NCBI GenBank assembly: GCA_964519555.1 | Contig: CAZFJE010000001.1 | Span: 3,654 to 67,653, forward strand | DNA: 64,000 bases | Direction: 5' to 3' | From: an uncultured Thermoleophilia bacterium | Lineage (GTDB): Bacteria > Actinomycetota > Thermoleophilia > UBA2241 | In this document: piece by piece, positions 2,844-64,000 of the stretch | How the letters are laid out: every line of letters begins with the position of its first letter | How positions within the stretch are numbered: position 1 is the stretch's first letter | The notes under the pieces: generated by a model | What the model was told of the DNA's origin: nothing | What the model saw: the letters and a program-made list of their open reading frames with translations, nothing else | Databases searched by the model: none | Translations under genes and position numbers: made by a program

Positions 2844-4044
2844 CGCTCGACCTCCAGTCGAACTCGGCCGGCACGACGGCGTCGACGAATCGCGCCTCGG
2901 CCTCTGTCGGTCGCCCCACGTAGACGACCCTGGTCGGGCGTTCGGCGCGCAACTGGGCGAGCCGGTCGAGCACGCTCTCGCGCAGGGCGGCCGTGACCAC
3001 GAGGCACTCCGCCGGGCTGCTCTCGTCGGCAAGCTCGACGGCGAGCATGCGTTCGAAGCCGCGAGCCGTGAACAGGTGCACGCGGGCCAGCATCTCGAGG
3101 ACCTCGGGCAGCGCGCCCTGTGCGGGTTCGATGTCGGCGACGCGCCAGTCGCCCATCAGCCGGGCGTTAGAGGCGAGGCCCACGCCGAAGCCCTGCGCGG
3201 CGAAGGCGGCGGCCAGCGAAGCGGTCACCACGCAGAGCAGCTCCATGCGCTCGGGGCCCATGCCCTGCCAGGCGTTCTGCAGCACGCCGACGTCGAGCAG
3301 CAGACGCACGGCGGCAAGCGACGCCGGCTCGAACTCGTTGGTCTGCAGCTCGCCCACGCGCGCCGTAGCACGCCAGTTGATCGCCCGCAGCGGGTCGCCG
3401 GCGCGATACTCCCTGATGCCGCGCAGCGCCGTGGGGTCAGAGGCGAGCGAGCGGGCCGCGGCCTCTTCGGCCAGGGGGCGGCCCAGGAAGGCCTTGAGAT
3501 CGGGGACGTCGAGCACCTTGGGCAGCACGGCGATCTCGGCGCGCGCCTCGAGCTCGTCTCTCACCCCGGCAACGCCGAACGGGTCACCGGCCTCGAGCTC
3601 GACGGGACCGAAGCGCTGCAGGCCGCGCGCCGTGCAGCGCACGCGATAGCGACGCCGCAGCAGCTCGTACCAGCGCACCGAGACGGTCTGCTCGAAGACC
3701 TGCAGGCCGCGCCCCCGTGGCCGCAGCGTGAAACCAAGTGGCTCGAGCCCGGCGGGCCACTGGTCGCGGACGCGCATCCACAGCAGGGGGAGCAGCTTGG
3801 CGTTGGTGACGCTGACCGTTACCTCGAGCTCGCCGCCCCACGACACGACGCGCCGCGACAGCGTGCGCTCGAAGGTCACGGCGGAAAAGACGCGCCGCCG
3901 GGTCGCCACGACGAGGGCAGTCAGGAACGCGGCGCAGAGCGCCGCAAAGACGAGCGCCGGTGAGTGCAGCAGGGCAGCGAGAGCGACCGCCGCGATGGCG
4001 GCGGCGGCTATCGACCTCAGCCGCACGGCCGGCCCTCGGTTCAT
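2821..4044 (-). CDS. DUF58 family protein (vWA-like, MoxR partner)
   Basis: It has an N-terminal double TM segment and the motif REYRAGDPLRAINWRATARVGELQTNEFEP, which is typical of DUF58. Its start overlaps the MoxR stop by 4 nt (ATGA). Confidence 0.85.
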   Translation of the reverse strand: MNRGPAVRLRSIAAAAIAAVALAALLHSPALVFAALCAAFLTALVVATRRRVFSAVTFERTLSRRVVSWGGELEVTVSVTNAKLLPLLWMRVRDQWPAGLEPLGFTLRPRGRGLQVFEQTVSVRWYELLRRRYRVRCTARGLQRFGPVELEAGDPFGVAGVRDELEARAEIAVLPKVLDVPDLKAFLGRPLAEEAAARSLASDPTALRGIREYRAGDPLRAINWRATARVGELQTNEFEPASLAAVRLLLDVGVLQNAWQGMGPERMELLCVVTASLAAAFAAQGFGVGLASNARLMGDWRVADIEPAQGALPEVLEMLARVHLFTARGFERMLAVELADESSPAECLVVTAALRESVLDRLAQLRAERPTRVVYVGRPTEAEARFVDAVVPAEFDWRSSDALPLLA

Positions 4045-59108: not shown

Positions 59109-59690
59109 TCAGGACGTGGCGTTTGCCTGCGCCAGGCGCGCCGCCGACAACGGGCGTCGCTCGACCAGGTCGGCGAGCCACTCGCCGATCAACGGCGTGA
59201 ACTTGGCCGCGTGCCCCGAACAGGCCGAGCACACCACGAGAGCGCCGTAGCGCGCGACGAGGAAGTCCTGGCTGGAGGTCCAGGTGTACAGGCAGTCGCG
59301 CTCCGCGACCGGCTCGGGGTCGAGTCCGGGCCAGAAGCGACGCACGTAATCGCTCATGCGGCGCCGCGTGGCGGGATCGTGGTCGCGGCCGTGGTCGAGC
59401 CCGCCGGTGGTGACCAGCAGGGTCGCGCCCGCGGCCCGTTCGAGCTCGCGCCAGAGCTCAAGAGCCTGCCCGGTCATGGCCACGTACTCGGCCTCGGGGT
59501 AGGCGCGCCGGAAGATGCGCGAGCTGTCGTGCGAGCTGCCGTACCGGTGCCCCGCGCGGTGCGCGTCGAAGGCCACGACCTCGTGGCCGCGGCGCGCCAA
59601 GGCCCAGGTGGCGGCGGTCCCCTTGAGGCCTAGACCGACGACGACCACCTCGACCCGGTCGGGCACCTGGGCGAGCTCCTCCGCGGTCAT
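59109..59690 (-). CDS. Internally shortened FAD-dependent amine oxidase (MSOX/SolA-like); possibly non-functional
   Basis: The N-terminal 90 aa are a FAD-binding fold (VVVVGLGLKGTAATWALARRG, SSHDSSRIFRRAY). The C-terminal 90 aa match the end of sarcosine oxidases (RDCLYTWTSSQDFLV, SGHAAKFTPLIGEWLADL). The central region of about 190 aa is missing (193 aa against about 380). Confidence 0.7.
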   Translation of the reverse strand: MTAEELAQVPDRVEVVVVGLGLKGTAATWALARRGHEVVAFDAHRAGHRYGSSHDSSRIFRRAYPEAEYVAMTGQALELWRELERAAGATLLVTTGGLDHGRDHDPATRRRMSDYVRRFWPGLDPEPVAERDCLYTWTSSQDFLVARYGALVVCSACSGHAAKFTPLIGEWLADLVERRPLSAARLAQANATS

Positions 59691-60141: not shown

Positions 60142-60289
60142 GCTTTGCCTTTCGTCGCTTTCGGTCTGTGCTCCCGACGTACCCCACCAGCCGTCCGACG
60201 AATCTGGTCGCACCACGACTTGCCCTGTGCCCTCCTCTCGCCGCCACACGGTTGCTGTAGATCAGTTGTGTCGGCTACGGTGCACCTTA

Positions 60290-60946
60290 ATGGCAAGAGC
60301 GGCGGAGCAACTGGGCATGCAGCGACTGATCGACTCGCTCATCGACGGCAACAGAGACGCGGCGCTGACCGAGGCGCGGCGGCTGCGCGCCGCCGGGGTG
60401 CCGGTCGAACGCATCGTGAGCGAGGGCCTGGAGACCGCCATGGAACAGGTCGATGCGAAGTGCACGGTCGAAGCCTTCAACCTGCTCGAGATCATGCTGG
60501 TCGGGCGGGCGGTCACCGTGGTCGCCGGCGAGCTCTACCCACGGGGGGCGCCCCCCGGCCGCACCAGGGCCACCGTGGCCATCGCTTCGCCCGAGGGCGA
60601 CGTTCACGACCTCGGCAAGAACATCGTGGCCATGGTGCTCAGCGGCAAGGGATTCCGCGTCGTCGACCTCGGCAGGGACTGCCCGCTCGACACGCTGCTC
60701 GAGGGCGCGCGGCGCGAGCCGGTCGTCGCGGTCCTGCTGAGCGGCCTGATCACCACGGTCATCCCGCAGGTGCGTCGCGTCAGGCCCGCCCTGGCCGGCC
60801 GGGGACTCGGCTCCGTGAAGGTCGTGGCAGGCGGCGCCGCCTTGCGCCAGGCCTCGGCGGAACAGCTCGACGTCGACTACGTCGCCCAGACCGCCTTCGA
60901 CGGGGCACACTATCTCGAGACGCTCTTCCCGGCGGTGACCTCGTGA
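60290..60946 (+). CDS. Corrinoid (cobalamin-binding) protein with B12-binding_2 cap and Rossmann B12-binding domain
   Basis: The DxHxxG motif is GDVHDLGKN. The SxL region is VLLSGLITT and the GG region is VVAGGAAL. The N-terminal four-helix cap is LIDSLIDGNRDAALTEARRL. The start is ATG 60290. Confidence 0.85.
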   Translation: MARAAEQLGMQRLIDSLIDGNRDAALTEARRLRAAGVPVERIVSEGLETAMEQVDAKCTVEAFNLLEIMLVGRAVTVVAGELYPRGAPPGRTRATVAIASPEGDVHDLGKNIVAMVLSGKGFRVVDLGRDCPLDTLLEGARREPVVAVLLSGLITTVIPQVRRVRPALAGRGLGSVKVVAGGAALRQASAEQLDVDYVAQTAFDGAHYLETLFPAVTS

Positions 60947-60968
60947 AGCTCTCCCCGGCAGCGGTCTC

Positions 60969-61982
60969 GTGAACGCCATCGCACGCGTGCGCGCGGCGGT
61001 CGCCTTTGGCGAGACCGACCGCACGCCCGTGATCCCGCAAATCTTCGCCCACGCCGCCGTGCTGTGCGGGGTGCCGGTCGGCGACTACGCCCACGATGGC
61101 GCCCTGCTGGCGCGTTGCCAGATGGCAGCCGCCCGGCACTACGGCCACGATGCCGTGTTTGCCTTCATGGACGCGGGCGTCGAAGCAGAGGCCGTCGGCT
61201 CGGTCCTGCGATACCACAGCGCGCAATACGCCACGGTCGCCTCGTACGCGCTCGCCCCGGACGACGCGATCGATGGGCTGGCCGTGCCCGACCCGCACGT
61301 CGCGGGACGCATGCCGGAGCTGCTGCGCGCCGTCACGGCGCTGCGCGCCGGGATCGGCGACGAGCTGCCGGTGGTCGCGGTCGTGCTCGGGCCCATGAGC
61401 CTCGCCCAGCAGCTCATGGGTGCCGAAGCGGCCCTGTACCTGGCCGCCGACGAGCCCCAGCGCTTCGAGGAGCTGCTCGGATTCACCACCCGGGTCGGCT
61501 TGCGCCACGGCCAAGCCCTGCTGGCCGCCGGCGCCCACGTGGCGCTCGTGTTCGAGCCAGCCGGCTCGCCGGCCGTCGTGCCGCCGGCGTACTTTCGCGA
61601 GCTGTTGCTGCCGCGCTTGGGCGAGCTGTTCTCGGCCTTCAGGCAGGCGGGGGCGCTGGCCACGTGGCTGCACATCGCCGGTCCGACCGCGCCGATCCTG
61701 GGCAACTACCCGCGGGCGGGGGCCGACATCGCCAACATCGACTACGAGGTCGATCCGCTCGACGCCGCGCGGATCCTGCCGCGCACCTGTCTCGACGGCA
61801 ATCTGCGCTCGCTCTCGTTCGTGCTGGACTCCCCCGACGAGATCGGTGTCGAGTGTCGCCGGCTCGCGGCGCTCTTCGAAGCTCGTGGCGGGTTCATCCT
61901 TTCATCGGGCTGCGAGATCCCCCTCGAAGCCAGGCCCGAGAACGTGGCAGCCATGGTCGCCGCGGTCCAGAGCGACTCGTGA
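60969..61982 (+). CDS. URO-D-superfamily methyltransferase (MtaA/CmuA-like methylcobamide methyltransferase)
   Basis: 337 aa with ETDRTPVIPQIFAHAA, DAGVEAEAVG, VVLGPMSLAQQLMG, FEPAGS, HIAG and SSGCEIPLEARPENV. The start is GTG 60969, 22 nt after the corrinoid gene stop. Confidence 0.8.
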   Translation: MNAIARVRAAVAFGETDRTPVIPQIFAHAAVLCGVPVGDYAHDGALLARCQMAAARHYGHDAVFAFMDAGVEAEAVGSVLRYHSAQYATVASYALAPDDAIDGLAVPDPHVAGRMPELLRAVTALRAGIGDELPVVAVVLGPMSLAQQLMGAEAALYLAADEPQRFEELLGFTTRVGLRHGQALLAAGAHVALVFEPAGSPAVVPPAYFRELLLPRLGELFSAFRQAGALATWLHIAGPTAPILGNYPRAGADIANIDYEVDPLDAARILPRTCLDGNLRSLSFVLDSPDEIGVECRRLAALFEARGGFILSSGCEIPLEARPENVAAMVAAVQSDS

Positions 61983-63205
61983 GCGAGCGCATCGAGGAAC
62001 ACCGGGACACGCTCAGCGCCGTGCTGCGCACGGCACAGTACCTGGCCATGCTGCGCAGCGACGCCGACGTCTGGAGCGAGCTCGGCCGGGTGATGGTGCG
62101 ATTCTTCGCGGCCGACCTGGTGGCCCTGGTCGAACGCCGTCCCGACGGTACGATCGTCTCACGCTACTGCACGCTGCCGGCGCCCAACGCCTGCGCCGCG
62201 CTTGCCGACCAGGTCCAGGGGACCGTTGTCCAGGTGCTCGACAGCGGTTTTCTGGCGAGCGAGCTGGTCGCCCTGCCCGACGGCGACTATGCCCTCGCCG
62301 TGCTGCCGCTGGCCGGCGAGCGCCAGACGGCCGCGGCACTGCTGGTCGGGCACCTGGCGAGCAGCCCTCTCCCCCAGCCGCTGCTCGACCTCTACCTGGC
62401 GGTCTCAGGCCTCTTCGCCAGCACCATGGCTCGGGTCGTCTCGGAACGCGCGGCGCTCGAAAACGCGCAGCGTTTCGAAGAGCAGCGCCGCATAGCGGTC
62501 GCCCTTCAGGAGAACTTCCTGAGCCCCCTGCCGCACATCGTGGGGCTCGACCTGGGCCTGGTCATGCAGACCGCCTACGCGCCCGAACAGGTGGGCGGCG
62601 ACTTCAGCGATGTCTTCAGCCTCGACGGCGCGCTGGTCGCCGTGCTGATCGGCGACGTGGCCGGCAAGGGCATCCGCGCCGCCGGCCTGACAGAACGGGT
62701 GCGCAGCGTGGTGCGGGCGTTCTCGACGGTCGACTCCTCCCCGGCGTTCATCTTGCGCAAGACCAACCAGCTCCTCCTGCGCCGCCAGACCGAGGGCGAG
62801 TTCGTCACGGCGTTCCTGCTCGTGCTCGACCGCGAGACCGGACGGGCCACCTATGCGAGCGCCGGCCACCCGCCCCCGGTGCTGGTCGCCCGCACGGAAT
62901 GCCGGTTGCTCGAAGTCTCGTTCGGCCTGCCGCTCGGCGCCTTCAGCAACGACTACCTCGACGCGCACGTCACGCTCGCCGGCGGCGATTGCCTCGTCTT
63001 TTACACCGACGGCGTCACCGAAGCGCGGCGCGCCGGCGAACTGTTCGGCGAACAGCGCCTGCTCGAAGCCGTCTCGAGGCTGCGCTCATGCTCCCCTCAA
63101 AGGCTCGCCGAAGTCCTGCGCGACGAGGCGGCCGCCTTCGCCGGCCGCCTGGGCGACGACATCGAGGTCCTGGCCATGCGGCTCACCCCCACGGCGTACG
63201 GTTAG
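61979..63205 (+). CDS. SpoIIE/RsbU-type PP2C serine phosphatase with an N-terminal sensor-like domain
   Basis: PP2C motifs are VGGDFSDVF, IGDVAGKGIRAA, YASAGHPPP and FYTDGVTEAR. The start GTG 61979 overlaps the methyltransferase stop (GTGA). Confidence 0.85.
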   Translation: MSERIEEHRDTLSAVLRTAQYLAMLRSDADVWSELGRVMVRFFAADLVALVERRPDGTIVSRYCTLPAPNACAALADQVQGTVVQVLDSGFLASELVALPDGDYALAVLPLAGERQTAAALLVGHLASSPLPQPLLDLYLAVSGLFASTMARVVSERAALENAQRFEEQRRIAVALQENFLSPLPHIVGLDLGLVMQTAYAPEQVGGDFSDVFSLDGALVAVLIGDVAGKGIRAAGLTERVRSVVRAFSTVDSSPAFILRKTNQLLLRRQTEGEFVTAFLLVLDRETGRATYASAGHPPPVLVARTECRLLEVSFGLPLGAFSNDYLDAHVTLAGGDCLVFYTDGVTEARRAGELFGEQRLLEAVSRLRSCSPQRLAEVLRDEAAAFAGRLGDDIEVLAMRLTPTAYG

Positions 63206-63384: not shown

Positions 63385-64000
63385 ATGGATCCCCTGGCAA
63401 TCTACGCGGCGGCGCGCGGCGGCGGCCTGCGGCCGGCGCTGCTCGAGTCGCTCGGGCCGCCGACCGCCTTTGCGCGGCGCACCCTGCTGGCCGCGGCCCC
63501 GCGGCGGCGACTCGAGGTCTGGGACGGACTGCTCTACGAAGACGGCGCCGCCATCGGCGCGGCCGACGACCTGCTCGCCCAGCTCGAGACGGGCCTCACG
63601 CCCGGGCGCGACTTTCCCGTCTGGATCGGCTTCTTCAGCTACGAGTTCGCCGCGCGTCTGGGGCTGCCGACGGGTACCGCCATGCCCGGCTTGCCCGAGG
63701 CGGCCTTCTGTCTGTACGACGACGGCTGGCTGTGGCGCGACGGCCGTTTGGTCAGCGAACCGCCGGGGCCCACGGAGCGCCGCACGGTCGCCGACGCCGA
63801 GCCGCCGGCGACGGTCCCCCTTGCAGGCCTCGCGGCCGCGGCCGCGGCGCCGCTCGCCGCGCTGCCCCACATCGCCACACGCAGCGACTACGCCCGCACC
63901 GACTACCTCGCCGGCGTGCGCGCCGTCCAGGAGCGCATCAGGGCCGGCTGGGTCTACCAGGTCAACCTCTCGCACCGCTTCAGCTTTGCCGCCGGCGACC
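63385..64000 (+). CDS. pabB: Aminodeoxychorismate synthase component I-like (chorismate-binding enzyme), 3'-truncated by the window edge
   Basis: The frame is open from ATG 63385 (GAGGAGGG 7 nt upstream) to the window end. WIGFFSYEF and GWVYQVNLSHRF resemble PabB. Assignment within the TrpE/PabB/MenF family is tentative. Confidence 0.65.
   Translation, partial: MDPLAIYAAARGGGLRPALLESLGPPTAFARRTLLAAAPRRRLEVWDGLLYEDGAAIGAADDLLAQLETGLTPGRDFPVWIGFFSYEFAARLGLPTGTAMPGLPEAAFCLYDDGWLWRDGRLVSEPPGPTERRTVADAEPPATVPLAGLAAAAAAPLAALPHIATRSDYARTDYLAGVRAVQERIRAGWVYQVNLSHRFSFAAGD

Follow-up and report, generated by a model that had tools for sequence, protein, structure and literature searches.

The 64,000-nucleotide stretch analyzed here (hereafter, the window; positions 3,654 to 67,653 of contig CAZFJE010000001.1, i.e., C1:3654-67653, in the 3.7-Mb assembly of 414 contigs from an uncultured Thermoleophilia bacterium) carries, at 60290-63205 of its forward strand, three co-directional genes encoding a corrinoid (B12-binding) protein, a URO-D-family protein and a PP2C/SpoIIE serine phosphatase. 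The corrinoid protein, the URO-D enzyme, a RACo-type activase and a signaling (output) protein headed by a GAF-type domain form a four-part cassette encountered in about 80 fetched loci from many phyla. The operon is interpreted, with fair confidence, as the phosphatase-output form of this widespread cytoplasmic sensory cassette, in which the cobalt/methyl state of the corrinoid protein would be read by the GAF domain and would set the output. Apparently, this corrinoid-based sensory cassette is both undescribed and widely distributed: no published description of it was found in the full-text open-access literature. The parts of the operon (in the window coordinates) are as follows.

60142..60316 (+): divergent intergenic region, putative promoter, with a GGAG ribosome-binding site ~9 nt before ATG 60317
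60317..60946 (+): corrinoid (B12-binding) protein with a helical cap and a Rossmann B12 domain, 209 amino acids (aa), or 218 aa if read from ATG 60290
60969..61982 (+): predicted URO-D-fold, MtaA-like corrinoid methyltransferase of a subfamily without the zinc motif, 337 aa
61979..62371 (+): N-terminal reader domain of the phosphatase (hereafter, the N-domain), residues 1-131, predicted divergent and cassette-specific GAF fold (AlphaFold2, AF2; Foldseek)
62372..62563 (+): signaling helix / linker of the phosphatase leading from GAF to PP2C, residues 132-195 (helix 132-180 in the AF2 model)
62564..63205 (+): PP2C/SpoIIE serine phosphatase domain (PF07228), residues 196-408, and the stop codon

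The first-pass annotation had placed here a B12-binding protein with a DVHDLG motif, a URO-D-family methyltransferase 22 nt downstream and a phosphatase whose start overlaps the preceding stop, and this architecture was fully recovered. The DVHDLG motif occupies residues 104-109 of the corrinoid protein (PF02310, 1.2e-18, 67.5 bits vs. the 32.1-bit cut-off); the URO-D gene (PF01208, 3.6e-58, 197.7 bits) begins with GTG at 60969, after a gap of 22 nt from the stop codon of the corrinoid protein gene, and its own stop overlaps the GTG start of the phosphatase gene (ctcGTGAgc at 61977-61983). The phosphatase comprises 408 aa and matches PF07228 at residues 219-402 (2.6e-48, 165 bits). All the Pfam families expected earlier were, therefore, matched, PF02607 just weakly (21 bits, in the corrinoid protein). 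The corrinoid protein is probably 209 aa long, starting at ATG 60317 rather than at 60290: a GGAG Shine-Dalgarno sequence precedes ATG 60317, and a public gene call uses the same start.

Conservation of the triad, on which the earlier regulatory interpretation had been made dependent, was observed both in the genus and far beyond it. A URO-D orthologue is present in 5 of 12 same-genus genomes (identity 67-100%); the other seven, like every other genus in the family and class, possess distant URO-D paralogues only. The three genes are adjacent in the four positive relatives from the same genus, as well as on two long metagenome contigs (phosphatase identity 54% and 70%), with completely different flanks. 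The search with the URO-D protein also revealed many proteins 57-62% identical to it, e.g., in Sulfuricella, Thauera, Sulfurimicrobium lacus and Desulfomonilaceae. In these organisms, a B12-binding protein of ~212 aa is followed by the URO-D protein, a RACo/RamA-type activase (Fer2, Raco_middle and RACo_C_ter domains) and a signaling protein, which features PAS and HD-GYP domains in Betaproteobacteria and is a histidine kinase in Desulfomonilaceae.

The profile built from 25 URO-D orthologues (alignment A1, mean column identity 76%) and scanned against one genome per species matched 247 loci, and the best 80 of these were fetched for the analysis of neighborhoods. The orthologues (identity 53-72%) are spread over no fewer than 10 phyla of Bacteria and Archaea. 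The bacterial carriers belong to Actinomycetota, Pseudomonadota, Nitrospirota, Chloroflexota (including Oscillochloridaceae), Thermodesulfobacteriota, Acidobacteriota, Bacillota (Acetobacterium tundrae, Syntrophomonadaceae), Fibrobacterota and Fermentibacterota, and the archaeal ones are Methanocellaceae and Promethearchaeota. Longest-ORF (open reading frame) gene calling turned out to be unreliable at high-G+C loci, yielding shadow frames and over-extended starts. Genes were called by walking along the operon from the URO-D match and applying a filter on third-codon-position G+C (GC3); some upstream starts in this walk are still over-extended, so the corrinoid-protein lengths obtained there are upper bounds.

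The corrinoid protein gene was found upstream of the URO-D gene at every fetched locus except one, and the RACo gene downstream of it at most loci. The first ~150-170 residues encoded by the next gene are homologous to the N-terminus of the window phosphatase (blastp E 1e-14 to 1e-48). Clustering of ORFs within 7 kb on either side of 83 loci returned four recurrent families, namely the URO-D protein (83 loci), the corrinoid protein (81), the N-domain protein (70) and RACo (69), and a single-domain receiver was encoded near the cassette at 15 loci. No transporter, MT1 methyltransferase, nosZ, folate enzyme or other metabolic gene recurred in these neighborhoods at the threshold of at least eight loci. 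The invariant accessory genes, the dedicated N-terminal domain, the swappable outputs and the lack of metabolic partners collectively indicate a sensory input module. Thus, the regulatory rather than catabolic role suggested by the first-pass annotation is supported by comparative genomics, since the corrinoid/URO-D pair is followed by an N-domain signaling protein almost always. The operon of the window fits the cassette as defined here, with orthologous corrinoid protein and URO-D genes directly upstream of the gene for a cassette-GAF protein. The exceptional locus, L073, is an orphan from an Armatimonadota metagenome-assembled genome (MAG): its URO-D orthologue (identity 56%) is solitary, and the genes for the corrinoid protein, RACo and the reader domain are all missing from the surrounding 7 kb.

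The N-terminal part of the phosphatase had been described earlier as a sensor-like region of ~190 aa. This is correct insofar as residues 1-190 displayed no Pfam or NCBIfam match; the correction is that they harbor a specific, uncatalogued GAF-type domain. No Pfam family matched the N-domain at E<=1, and the Pfam GAF models missed it at the same threshold, both alone and in five other output proteins. In the AF2 model (predicted local distance difference test, pLDDT, 93), the N-domain assumes a GAF topology with two helices, two strands, two helices, three strands and a C-terminal helix of ~50 residues. The top Foldseek matches are GAF domains, i.e., 6oap (a bilin-binding GAF kinase), 3ci6 (PtsP), 8jrc (NifA) and 4g3k (NLH1), with E values of 5e-6 to 1e-4 and template modeling (TM) scores of ~0.55-0.6. 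As judged by this model, the N-domain is predicted to be a divergent, cassette-specific GAF domain absent from Pfam. Its family is small, with sharp boundaries: among 1.84 billion representative proteins, the profile search detected 458 clusters at E<=1e-3, with 348 remaining at E<=1e-10 and 245 at E<=1e-30. The best 150 matches listed have the N-domain at or near the N-terminus of proteins of 173-1,921 aa.

In the N-domain alignment (A2, n=61), residues Q19, Y20, G89-F90-L91, P109, G123, L135, Y138-L139-A140, G143-L144 and R151 are near-invariant. Methyl-accepting or cobalt-ligating Cys or His residues were also considered, and none is invariant in the N-domain; the His of the L-V-G-H motif is replaced by Y, R or Q at several loci. 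Direct methylation of the reader domain is, hence, not favored. The genome harboring the window has a single copy of the N-domain, located in this operon; other matches to the N-terminal half of the phosphatase in the genome cover just the linker helix, which is common to SpoIIE paralogues. PAS- or GAF-SpoIIE proteins from the protein database share 55-65% identity with the PP2C part, whose metal-binding residues D208, D226, D344, D393 and D394 do not vary among 25 full-length orthologues. This similarity, together with a linker like that of the genome's own SpoIIE paralogues, agrees with the reader domain having been fused to a local phosphatase.

The outputs were tallied for 84 loci with an N-domain protein, a few of them duplicate fetches of one place. 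Histidine kinases prevail (38/84 loci), followed by HD-GYP (19/84), GGDEF (10/84) and SpoIIE (9/84) proteins, while 8/84 loci have a truncated or unassigned output. The SpoIIE group comprises eight rows from the actinobacterial clade (one being a duplicate fetch) and one from Anaerolineae. Pfam searches on representatives confirmed these outputs and additionally recorded hybrid kinases with REC and Hpt domains, PAS arrays in proteins of up to 1,921 aa and more SpoIIE forms. At certain Nitrospirota loci (L091:8077-9633; L107, first gene after URO-D; protein P0272), fusions with the Fer2 - N-domain - HisKA - HATPase_c architecture are encoded; RACo is reduced there to its N-terminal [2Fe-2S] ferredoxin domain and joined to the reader-GAF histidine kinase. 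As a Rosetta-stone hint, this fusion suggests that the sensor protein and the corrinoid reductase share one complex. In cultured Sulfurimicrobium lacus (L023; AP022853, 323438-340448), the HD-GYP-output cassette lies within a signaling island with a Tll0287-like/PAS hybrid kinase upstream and a REC-HisKA_3 kinase, a REC-GerE regulator, a Crp-family regulator and a sigma-70 gene downstream.

In the maximum-likelihood tree of 83 URO-D sequences, the actinobacterial SpoIIE loci constitute one clade (100/97), the sister group of which is represented by two loci from Gammaproteobacteria MAGs with RACo and kinase outputs; the HD-GYP clade (Sulfuricellaceae and relatives) adjoins both. According to this tree, the SpoIIE output arose at least two times, and at least 18 output changes took place overall. 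The tree does not track taxonomy, e.g., Methanocellaceae are nested in a bacterial clade. The number of output changes along with the disagreement with taxonomy indicates that the module moves as a unit and takes on new outputs.

The actinobacterial form is a derived one, which gained the PP2C output and lost the operon RACo gene: at all loci of this clade, RACo is absent from the position between the URO-D and the signaling gene. The claim of the first-pass annotation that the operon includes neither MT1 nor an activase stands, as both are indeed absent; what it overlooked is that RACo belongs to the ancestral cassette (69/83 loci) and disappeared in this lineage. Three RACo genes are located elsewhere in the window's genome; one adjoins CFeSP-like acsC/acsD genes, another has a KamA-like neighbor and the third stands alone. 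Their identity to the cassette RACos does not exceed 38% (median identity of the latter among themselves, 51%); all three are paralogues and were rejected as candidates for the missing cassette activase.

Two of the RACo sites are worth describing in their own right. At C89:552-4961, the RACo-type activase adjoins AcsC/AcsD-like genes (Wood-Ljungdahl), as judged by the N-terminal sequences of crude ORFs only. The AcsC/AcsD-like genes together with 10 corrinoid-protein paralogues are unusual for a peat actinobacterium with 70% G+C. At C222:2081-5244, the RACo-type gene is found beside a KamA-like (lysine-2,3-aminomutase) gene and two EamA-type transporter genes, and the family search reported one in-frame TGA in the RACo region.

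The corrinoid protein itself is, by its sequence, of the methyl-transfer (MttC-like) rather than the CarH type and is predicted to bind its cofactor in the base-off/His-on mode in the manner of methyltransferase carriers. Across 87 orthologues, the D104-x-H106-x-x-G109, S151-G-L153 and G181-G182 signatures are conserved at 95% or more. Among proteins of solved structure, MttC is the nearest one (7xcn, 1.8e-21), with MetH and MtmC also close and CarH at only 7e-5. TIGR02370 scored 94.7 bits, below its 215.3-bit cut-off, and the named equivalog models for corrinoid proteins (MtbC, MtaC, MtgC) scored far below theirs. Cys58 of the cap and Cys131 are also at least 95% conserved in the 87 orthologues, and a thiol near the upper corrin face could matter for the chemistry. 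The cap motif (residues 57-74) reads as an invariant K-C-T..F-N-L-L-E-I-M-L..G-R-A, with F..GE.FLP at this place in the methanogen carriers.

The description of the URO-D protein as an MtaA-like methylcobamide methyltransferase proved to be only partly applicable. The fold agrees with it: the AF2 model (pLDDT 92) has MtaA of Methanosarcina mazei as the best PDB match (4ay7, TM 0.89, root-mean-square deviation 2.3). The best NCBIfam model is TIGR01463 (MtaA/CmuA; 128.3 bits, under the 235.4-bit cut-off), and the scores against the MtaA and MtbA equivalogs were 105 and 93 bits with cut-offs of 400 and 600, respectively. However, the zinc-ligating Cys of MtaA is absent: the LHICG motif becomes LHIAG in the window and WL[H/N]IAGP across 25 aligned orthologues. 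The Cys at this position is invariantly replaced by Ala (25/25), the His is often replaced by Asn, and the distal Cys (SSGCEIP) alone is retained, so the H-x-C ... C zinc site of MtaA/CmuA is not present in this protein. Residues H28, C50, C274 and C315 are invariant among the aligned orthologues. Since the zinc Cys of MtaA is lacking, the reaction of the URO-D protein cannot be assumed from its homology to MtaA.

The most likely sequence of events in the cassette can be outlined as follows. The URO-D/MtaA-like enzyme would add a methyl group to the protein-bound cobamide or remove it therefrom. In most lineages, the RACo-type activase would reduce the oxidized Co(II) form back to Co(I); in the window's organism, this step might be carried out by one of the three unlinked RACo paralogues or might not exist. 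The state of the corrinoid protein, i.e., methyl-Co(III), Co(I) or Co(II), would be read via its docking to the cassette GAF domain. The GAF domain would then relay the change to the PP2C domain by way of its long C-terminal helix, much as happens in the regulated phosphatases of the RsbU/RsbP type, and the PP2C domain would dephosphorylate one of the many STAS antagonists of the genome, thereby shifting the sigma-factor partner-switching network. The sole known role of RACo, an ATP-driven reductase, is the return of corrinoid proteins to the Co(I) state. The presence of RACo at ~80% of the loci, therefore, implies that the carrier undergoes real Co(I)/methyl-Co(III) chemistry. In this scheme, we infer the role of the corrinoid state as the signal, its direct contact with the GAF domain, the phosphatase substrate and what is sensed. 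The candidate signals include a methyl donor/acceptor pair as well as oxidants or the redox state acting on Co(I); the anoxic and interface habitats of the carriers, many of them denitrifiers and sulfur oxidizers, fit a redox or oxidant role.

On the output side, the first-pass annotation proposed searching the genome for STAS and RsbW partners of the phosphatase. Such partners are plentiful but none of them is adjacent: no cognate STAS antagonist or RsbW-type kinase gene was found near the operon on the 70.8-kb contig. The genome contains 17 SpoIIE-domain matches, and the Pfam cut-off is exceeded by at least 13 STAS_2 matches and by 27 HATPase_c_2 matches (the latter number rises to 37 at E<=0.001), although some of the HATPase_c_2 matches are probably the ATPase domains of histidine kinases rather than RsbW-type kinases. 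These counts point to a large partner-switching network available in the genome. The operon is probably expressed in situ: short contigs of four metatranscriptomes from peat and wetland match parts of all three genes with 95-100% identity.

Certain observations weigh against this interpretation. The missing STAS or RsbW gene beside the phosphatase is one of them. The link between the corrinoid state and the GAF domain is suggested by gene context and by one type of fusion, and the reaction of the URO-D protein, lacking the zinc Cys, may differ from that of its homologs. The near-invariant residues of the N-domain (Q19, Y20, G89-F90-L91, P109, G123, Y138, R151) reveal no ligand or chemistry. 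In the clade of the window, which is devoid of a dedicated RACo, the full Co(I) cycle is less certain than in the ancestral form. Finally, the metatranscriptome contigs, being short and possibly containing some carried-over DNA, are no proof of co-transcription.

Of the competing explanations, the most serious one, albeit rather unlikely, holds that the corrinoid and URO-D proteins (with RACo) make up a small one-enzyme methyl-transfer pathway, similar to MtsA/MtsB or MtpA/MtpC, and that the GAF protein is a conventional small-molecule sensor, which would bind its substrate or product directly and either regulate the pathway or respond to the same compound. There are precedents for both half-reactions being catalyzed by one URO-D enzyme, i.e., MtsA and MtpA (bioRxiv 10.1101/548461). 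Small-molecule binding is common in GAF domains, and the Foldseek matches of the N-domain include ligand-binding ones; the real Co(I) chemistry implied by RACo at 69/83 loci would suit such a pathway as well, and the 10 corrinoid-protein paralogues of the genome show that metabolic corrinoid methyl transfer is in use there. Still, no transporter, second methyltransferase, folate- or coenzyme M (CoM)-linked gene or other metabolic gene recurs near the cassette. The outputs are global signaling enzymes, and a DNA-binding partner capable of controlling the operon is often absent at the HD-GYP, GGDEF and SpoIIE loci. The Fer2-N-domain fusion suggests a physical association of the reader with the corrinoid machinery, and the URO-D enzyme shows a conservation between domains of life that is unusual and not shared by the substrate-specific catabolic MT1 enzymes.

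It is much less probable that the cassette is a repairable photoreceptor, in which light would photolyze the methyl-cobamide, RACo and the URO-D enzyme would restore the dark state and the GAF protein would report the light. The Co-C bond of methylcobalamin is photolabile, which is established chemistry, and phototrophic Oscillochloridaceae carry the cassette. Cobalamin-based light sensing with SpoIIE and GGDEF outputs is known or predicted (CarH; photoglobin/photocobilin, PMC8717448, PMC10979010). On the other hand, the corrinoid protein is nearer to MttC than to CarH (1.8e-21 and 7e-5, respectively), and inspection of its residues 1-90 found no CarH-type W-x9-EH motif in the cap. Moreover, many of the carriers inhabit dark anoxic environments, such as Methanocellaceae, Promethearchaeota, Syntrophomonadaceae and organisms represented by fracture and groundwater MAGs. 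As to a fortuitous operon, in which the phosphatase of this genus would simply share a transcript with a corrinoid pair of unrelated function, bacterial operons can mix functions and no adjacent STAS or RsbW gene ties the phosphatase to a pathway, but the neighborhood survey effectively refuted this explanation, because the N-domain is encoded beside the same corrinoid pair at ~70 loci of at least 10 phyla with four output types, and its single copy in the genome resides in this very operon.

The sensory cassette resembles several known systems without coinciding with any of them. It shares with the methylotrophic systems (MtaC/MtaA, MttC/MtbA, MtsB/MtsA, RamA/RACo) the DxHxxG corrinoid protein, the URO-D-fold MT2-like enzyme and, ancestrally, the ATP-dependent RACo; the likeness to MtsA/MtsB extends to the combination of a single URO-D enzyme with one corrinoid protein. 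Unlike these systems, the cassette has neither MT1 nor a link to CoM or folate, the HxC motif is replaced by [H/N]-I-A, the corrinoid and URO-D proteins score under every curated NCBIfam cut-off, the pair is nearly always followed by a signaling gene and RACo is gone in the clade of the window. In the type 1 mlp clusters described by Kountz and Balskus (PMC10418091), Mlp paralogues number two or three; these clusters are found in obligate anaerobes (Firmicutes for the most part) and were proposed to participate in methyl-sulfur or selenide metabolism. The terms phosphatase, SpoIIE, RsbU, PP2C and sigma occur zero times each in the text of that paper, which describes no signaling partner. In contrast, the operon of the window has one URO-D gene, no activase gene and a dedicated GAF signaling protein, and lies outside the definition of such clusters.

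Among the B12-based sensors, CarH/LitR, AerR/PpaA and photoglobin/photocobilin (PMC8717448, PMC10979010) likewise possess a B12-binding sensory element, and their outputs include SpoIIE, GGDEF and histidine kinases. However, these sensors exploit the light chemistry of adenosylcobalamin (AdoCbl), or of AdoCbl with a bilin, in fused domains and involve no methyltransferase or activase, whereas the B12 protein of the cassette is a separate carrier of the methyl-transfer type, served by an enzyme (ancestrally also by a reductase) and presumably read by the GAF domain. The RsbQ-RsbP and RsbT-RsbU systems of Bacillus subtilis are similar in that an N-terminal regulatory domain is followed by a helical linker and PP2C, and the input protein or enzyme comes from the same operon; the expected substrate, as in RsbU/RsbP, is a phosphorylated STAS antagonist. 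Their inputs, the alpha/beta hydrolase RsbQ and the kinase RsbT, are unrelated to those of the cassette, which has its GAF domain in place of PAS or the RsbU N-domain and no cognate STAS or RsbW gene adjacent.

In a broader context, one can tentatively propose, with a confidence slightly short of even, that an enzyme-written cobamide state serves as an intracellular signal in many phyla of Bacteria and Archaea, with the zinc-less MtaA-like enzyme and RACo as writers and the GAF domain as the reader, which would drive kinases, c-di-GMP enzymes or, in the peat actinobacteria considered here, the phosphatase of a sigma-factor partner-switching system. The very reactive Co(I) could, in this case, sense oxidants (O2, N2O) or the status of methyl donors or reducing power. 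If true, this would be a third regulatory use of B12 after riboswitches and the light-sensing CarH-type proteins, that is, a non-photic, enzyme-serviced cofactor switch. It would also provide a function for the orphan pairs of "uroporphyrinogen decarboxylase family" and "cobalamin-binding" proteins (247 loci, in anaerobic/interface genomes and MAGs), define a new sensory GAF subfamily and supply an input for the general-stress-type partner switching in Actinomycetota, whose many SpoIIE phosphatases have largely unknown signals. The cassette is small, soluble and modular, making it a possible redox or methyl-donor biosensor.

An MT1 or activase gene just outside the window had been named as a finding that would weaken the regulatory interpretation; neither was recognized within the operon itself or in the 3.1 kb by which the contig extends past the window. 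On the phosphatase side, these 3.1 kb contain a pabB-GATase fusion, a sigma-70 gene on the opposite strand and one cut-off gene without a domain assignment. The window has a G+C content of ~70%; no match to the sigma-70 consensus was found upstream of the operon, the scan being uninformative for an actinobacterium with 70% G+C, as was the terminator scan. The DNA of the window was matched in wetland, peat and permafrost metagenomes, and close relatives are filed as MAGs of uncultured Actinomycetes/Actinomycetota.

The pabB-GATase gene (window 63385-64000 and beyond) begins 179 nt after the phosphatase stop and encodes a 644-aa protein in which aminodeoxychorismate/anthranilate synthase component I is fused to a glutamine amidotransferase; it has its own GAGGAGGG ribosome-binding site. 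Neither this gene nor the sigma-70 gene is kept beside the triad in relatives. On the other side of the operon, the reverse strand of the window (59109-59690) carries a DAO/sarcosine-oxidase-like ORF of 193 aa, from which the central part of the protein is absent. In the closest relative (L014:10859-11992), the halves matching this ORF are ~520 nt further apart, so a longer version has apparently been kept there.

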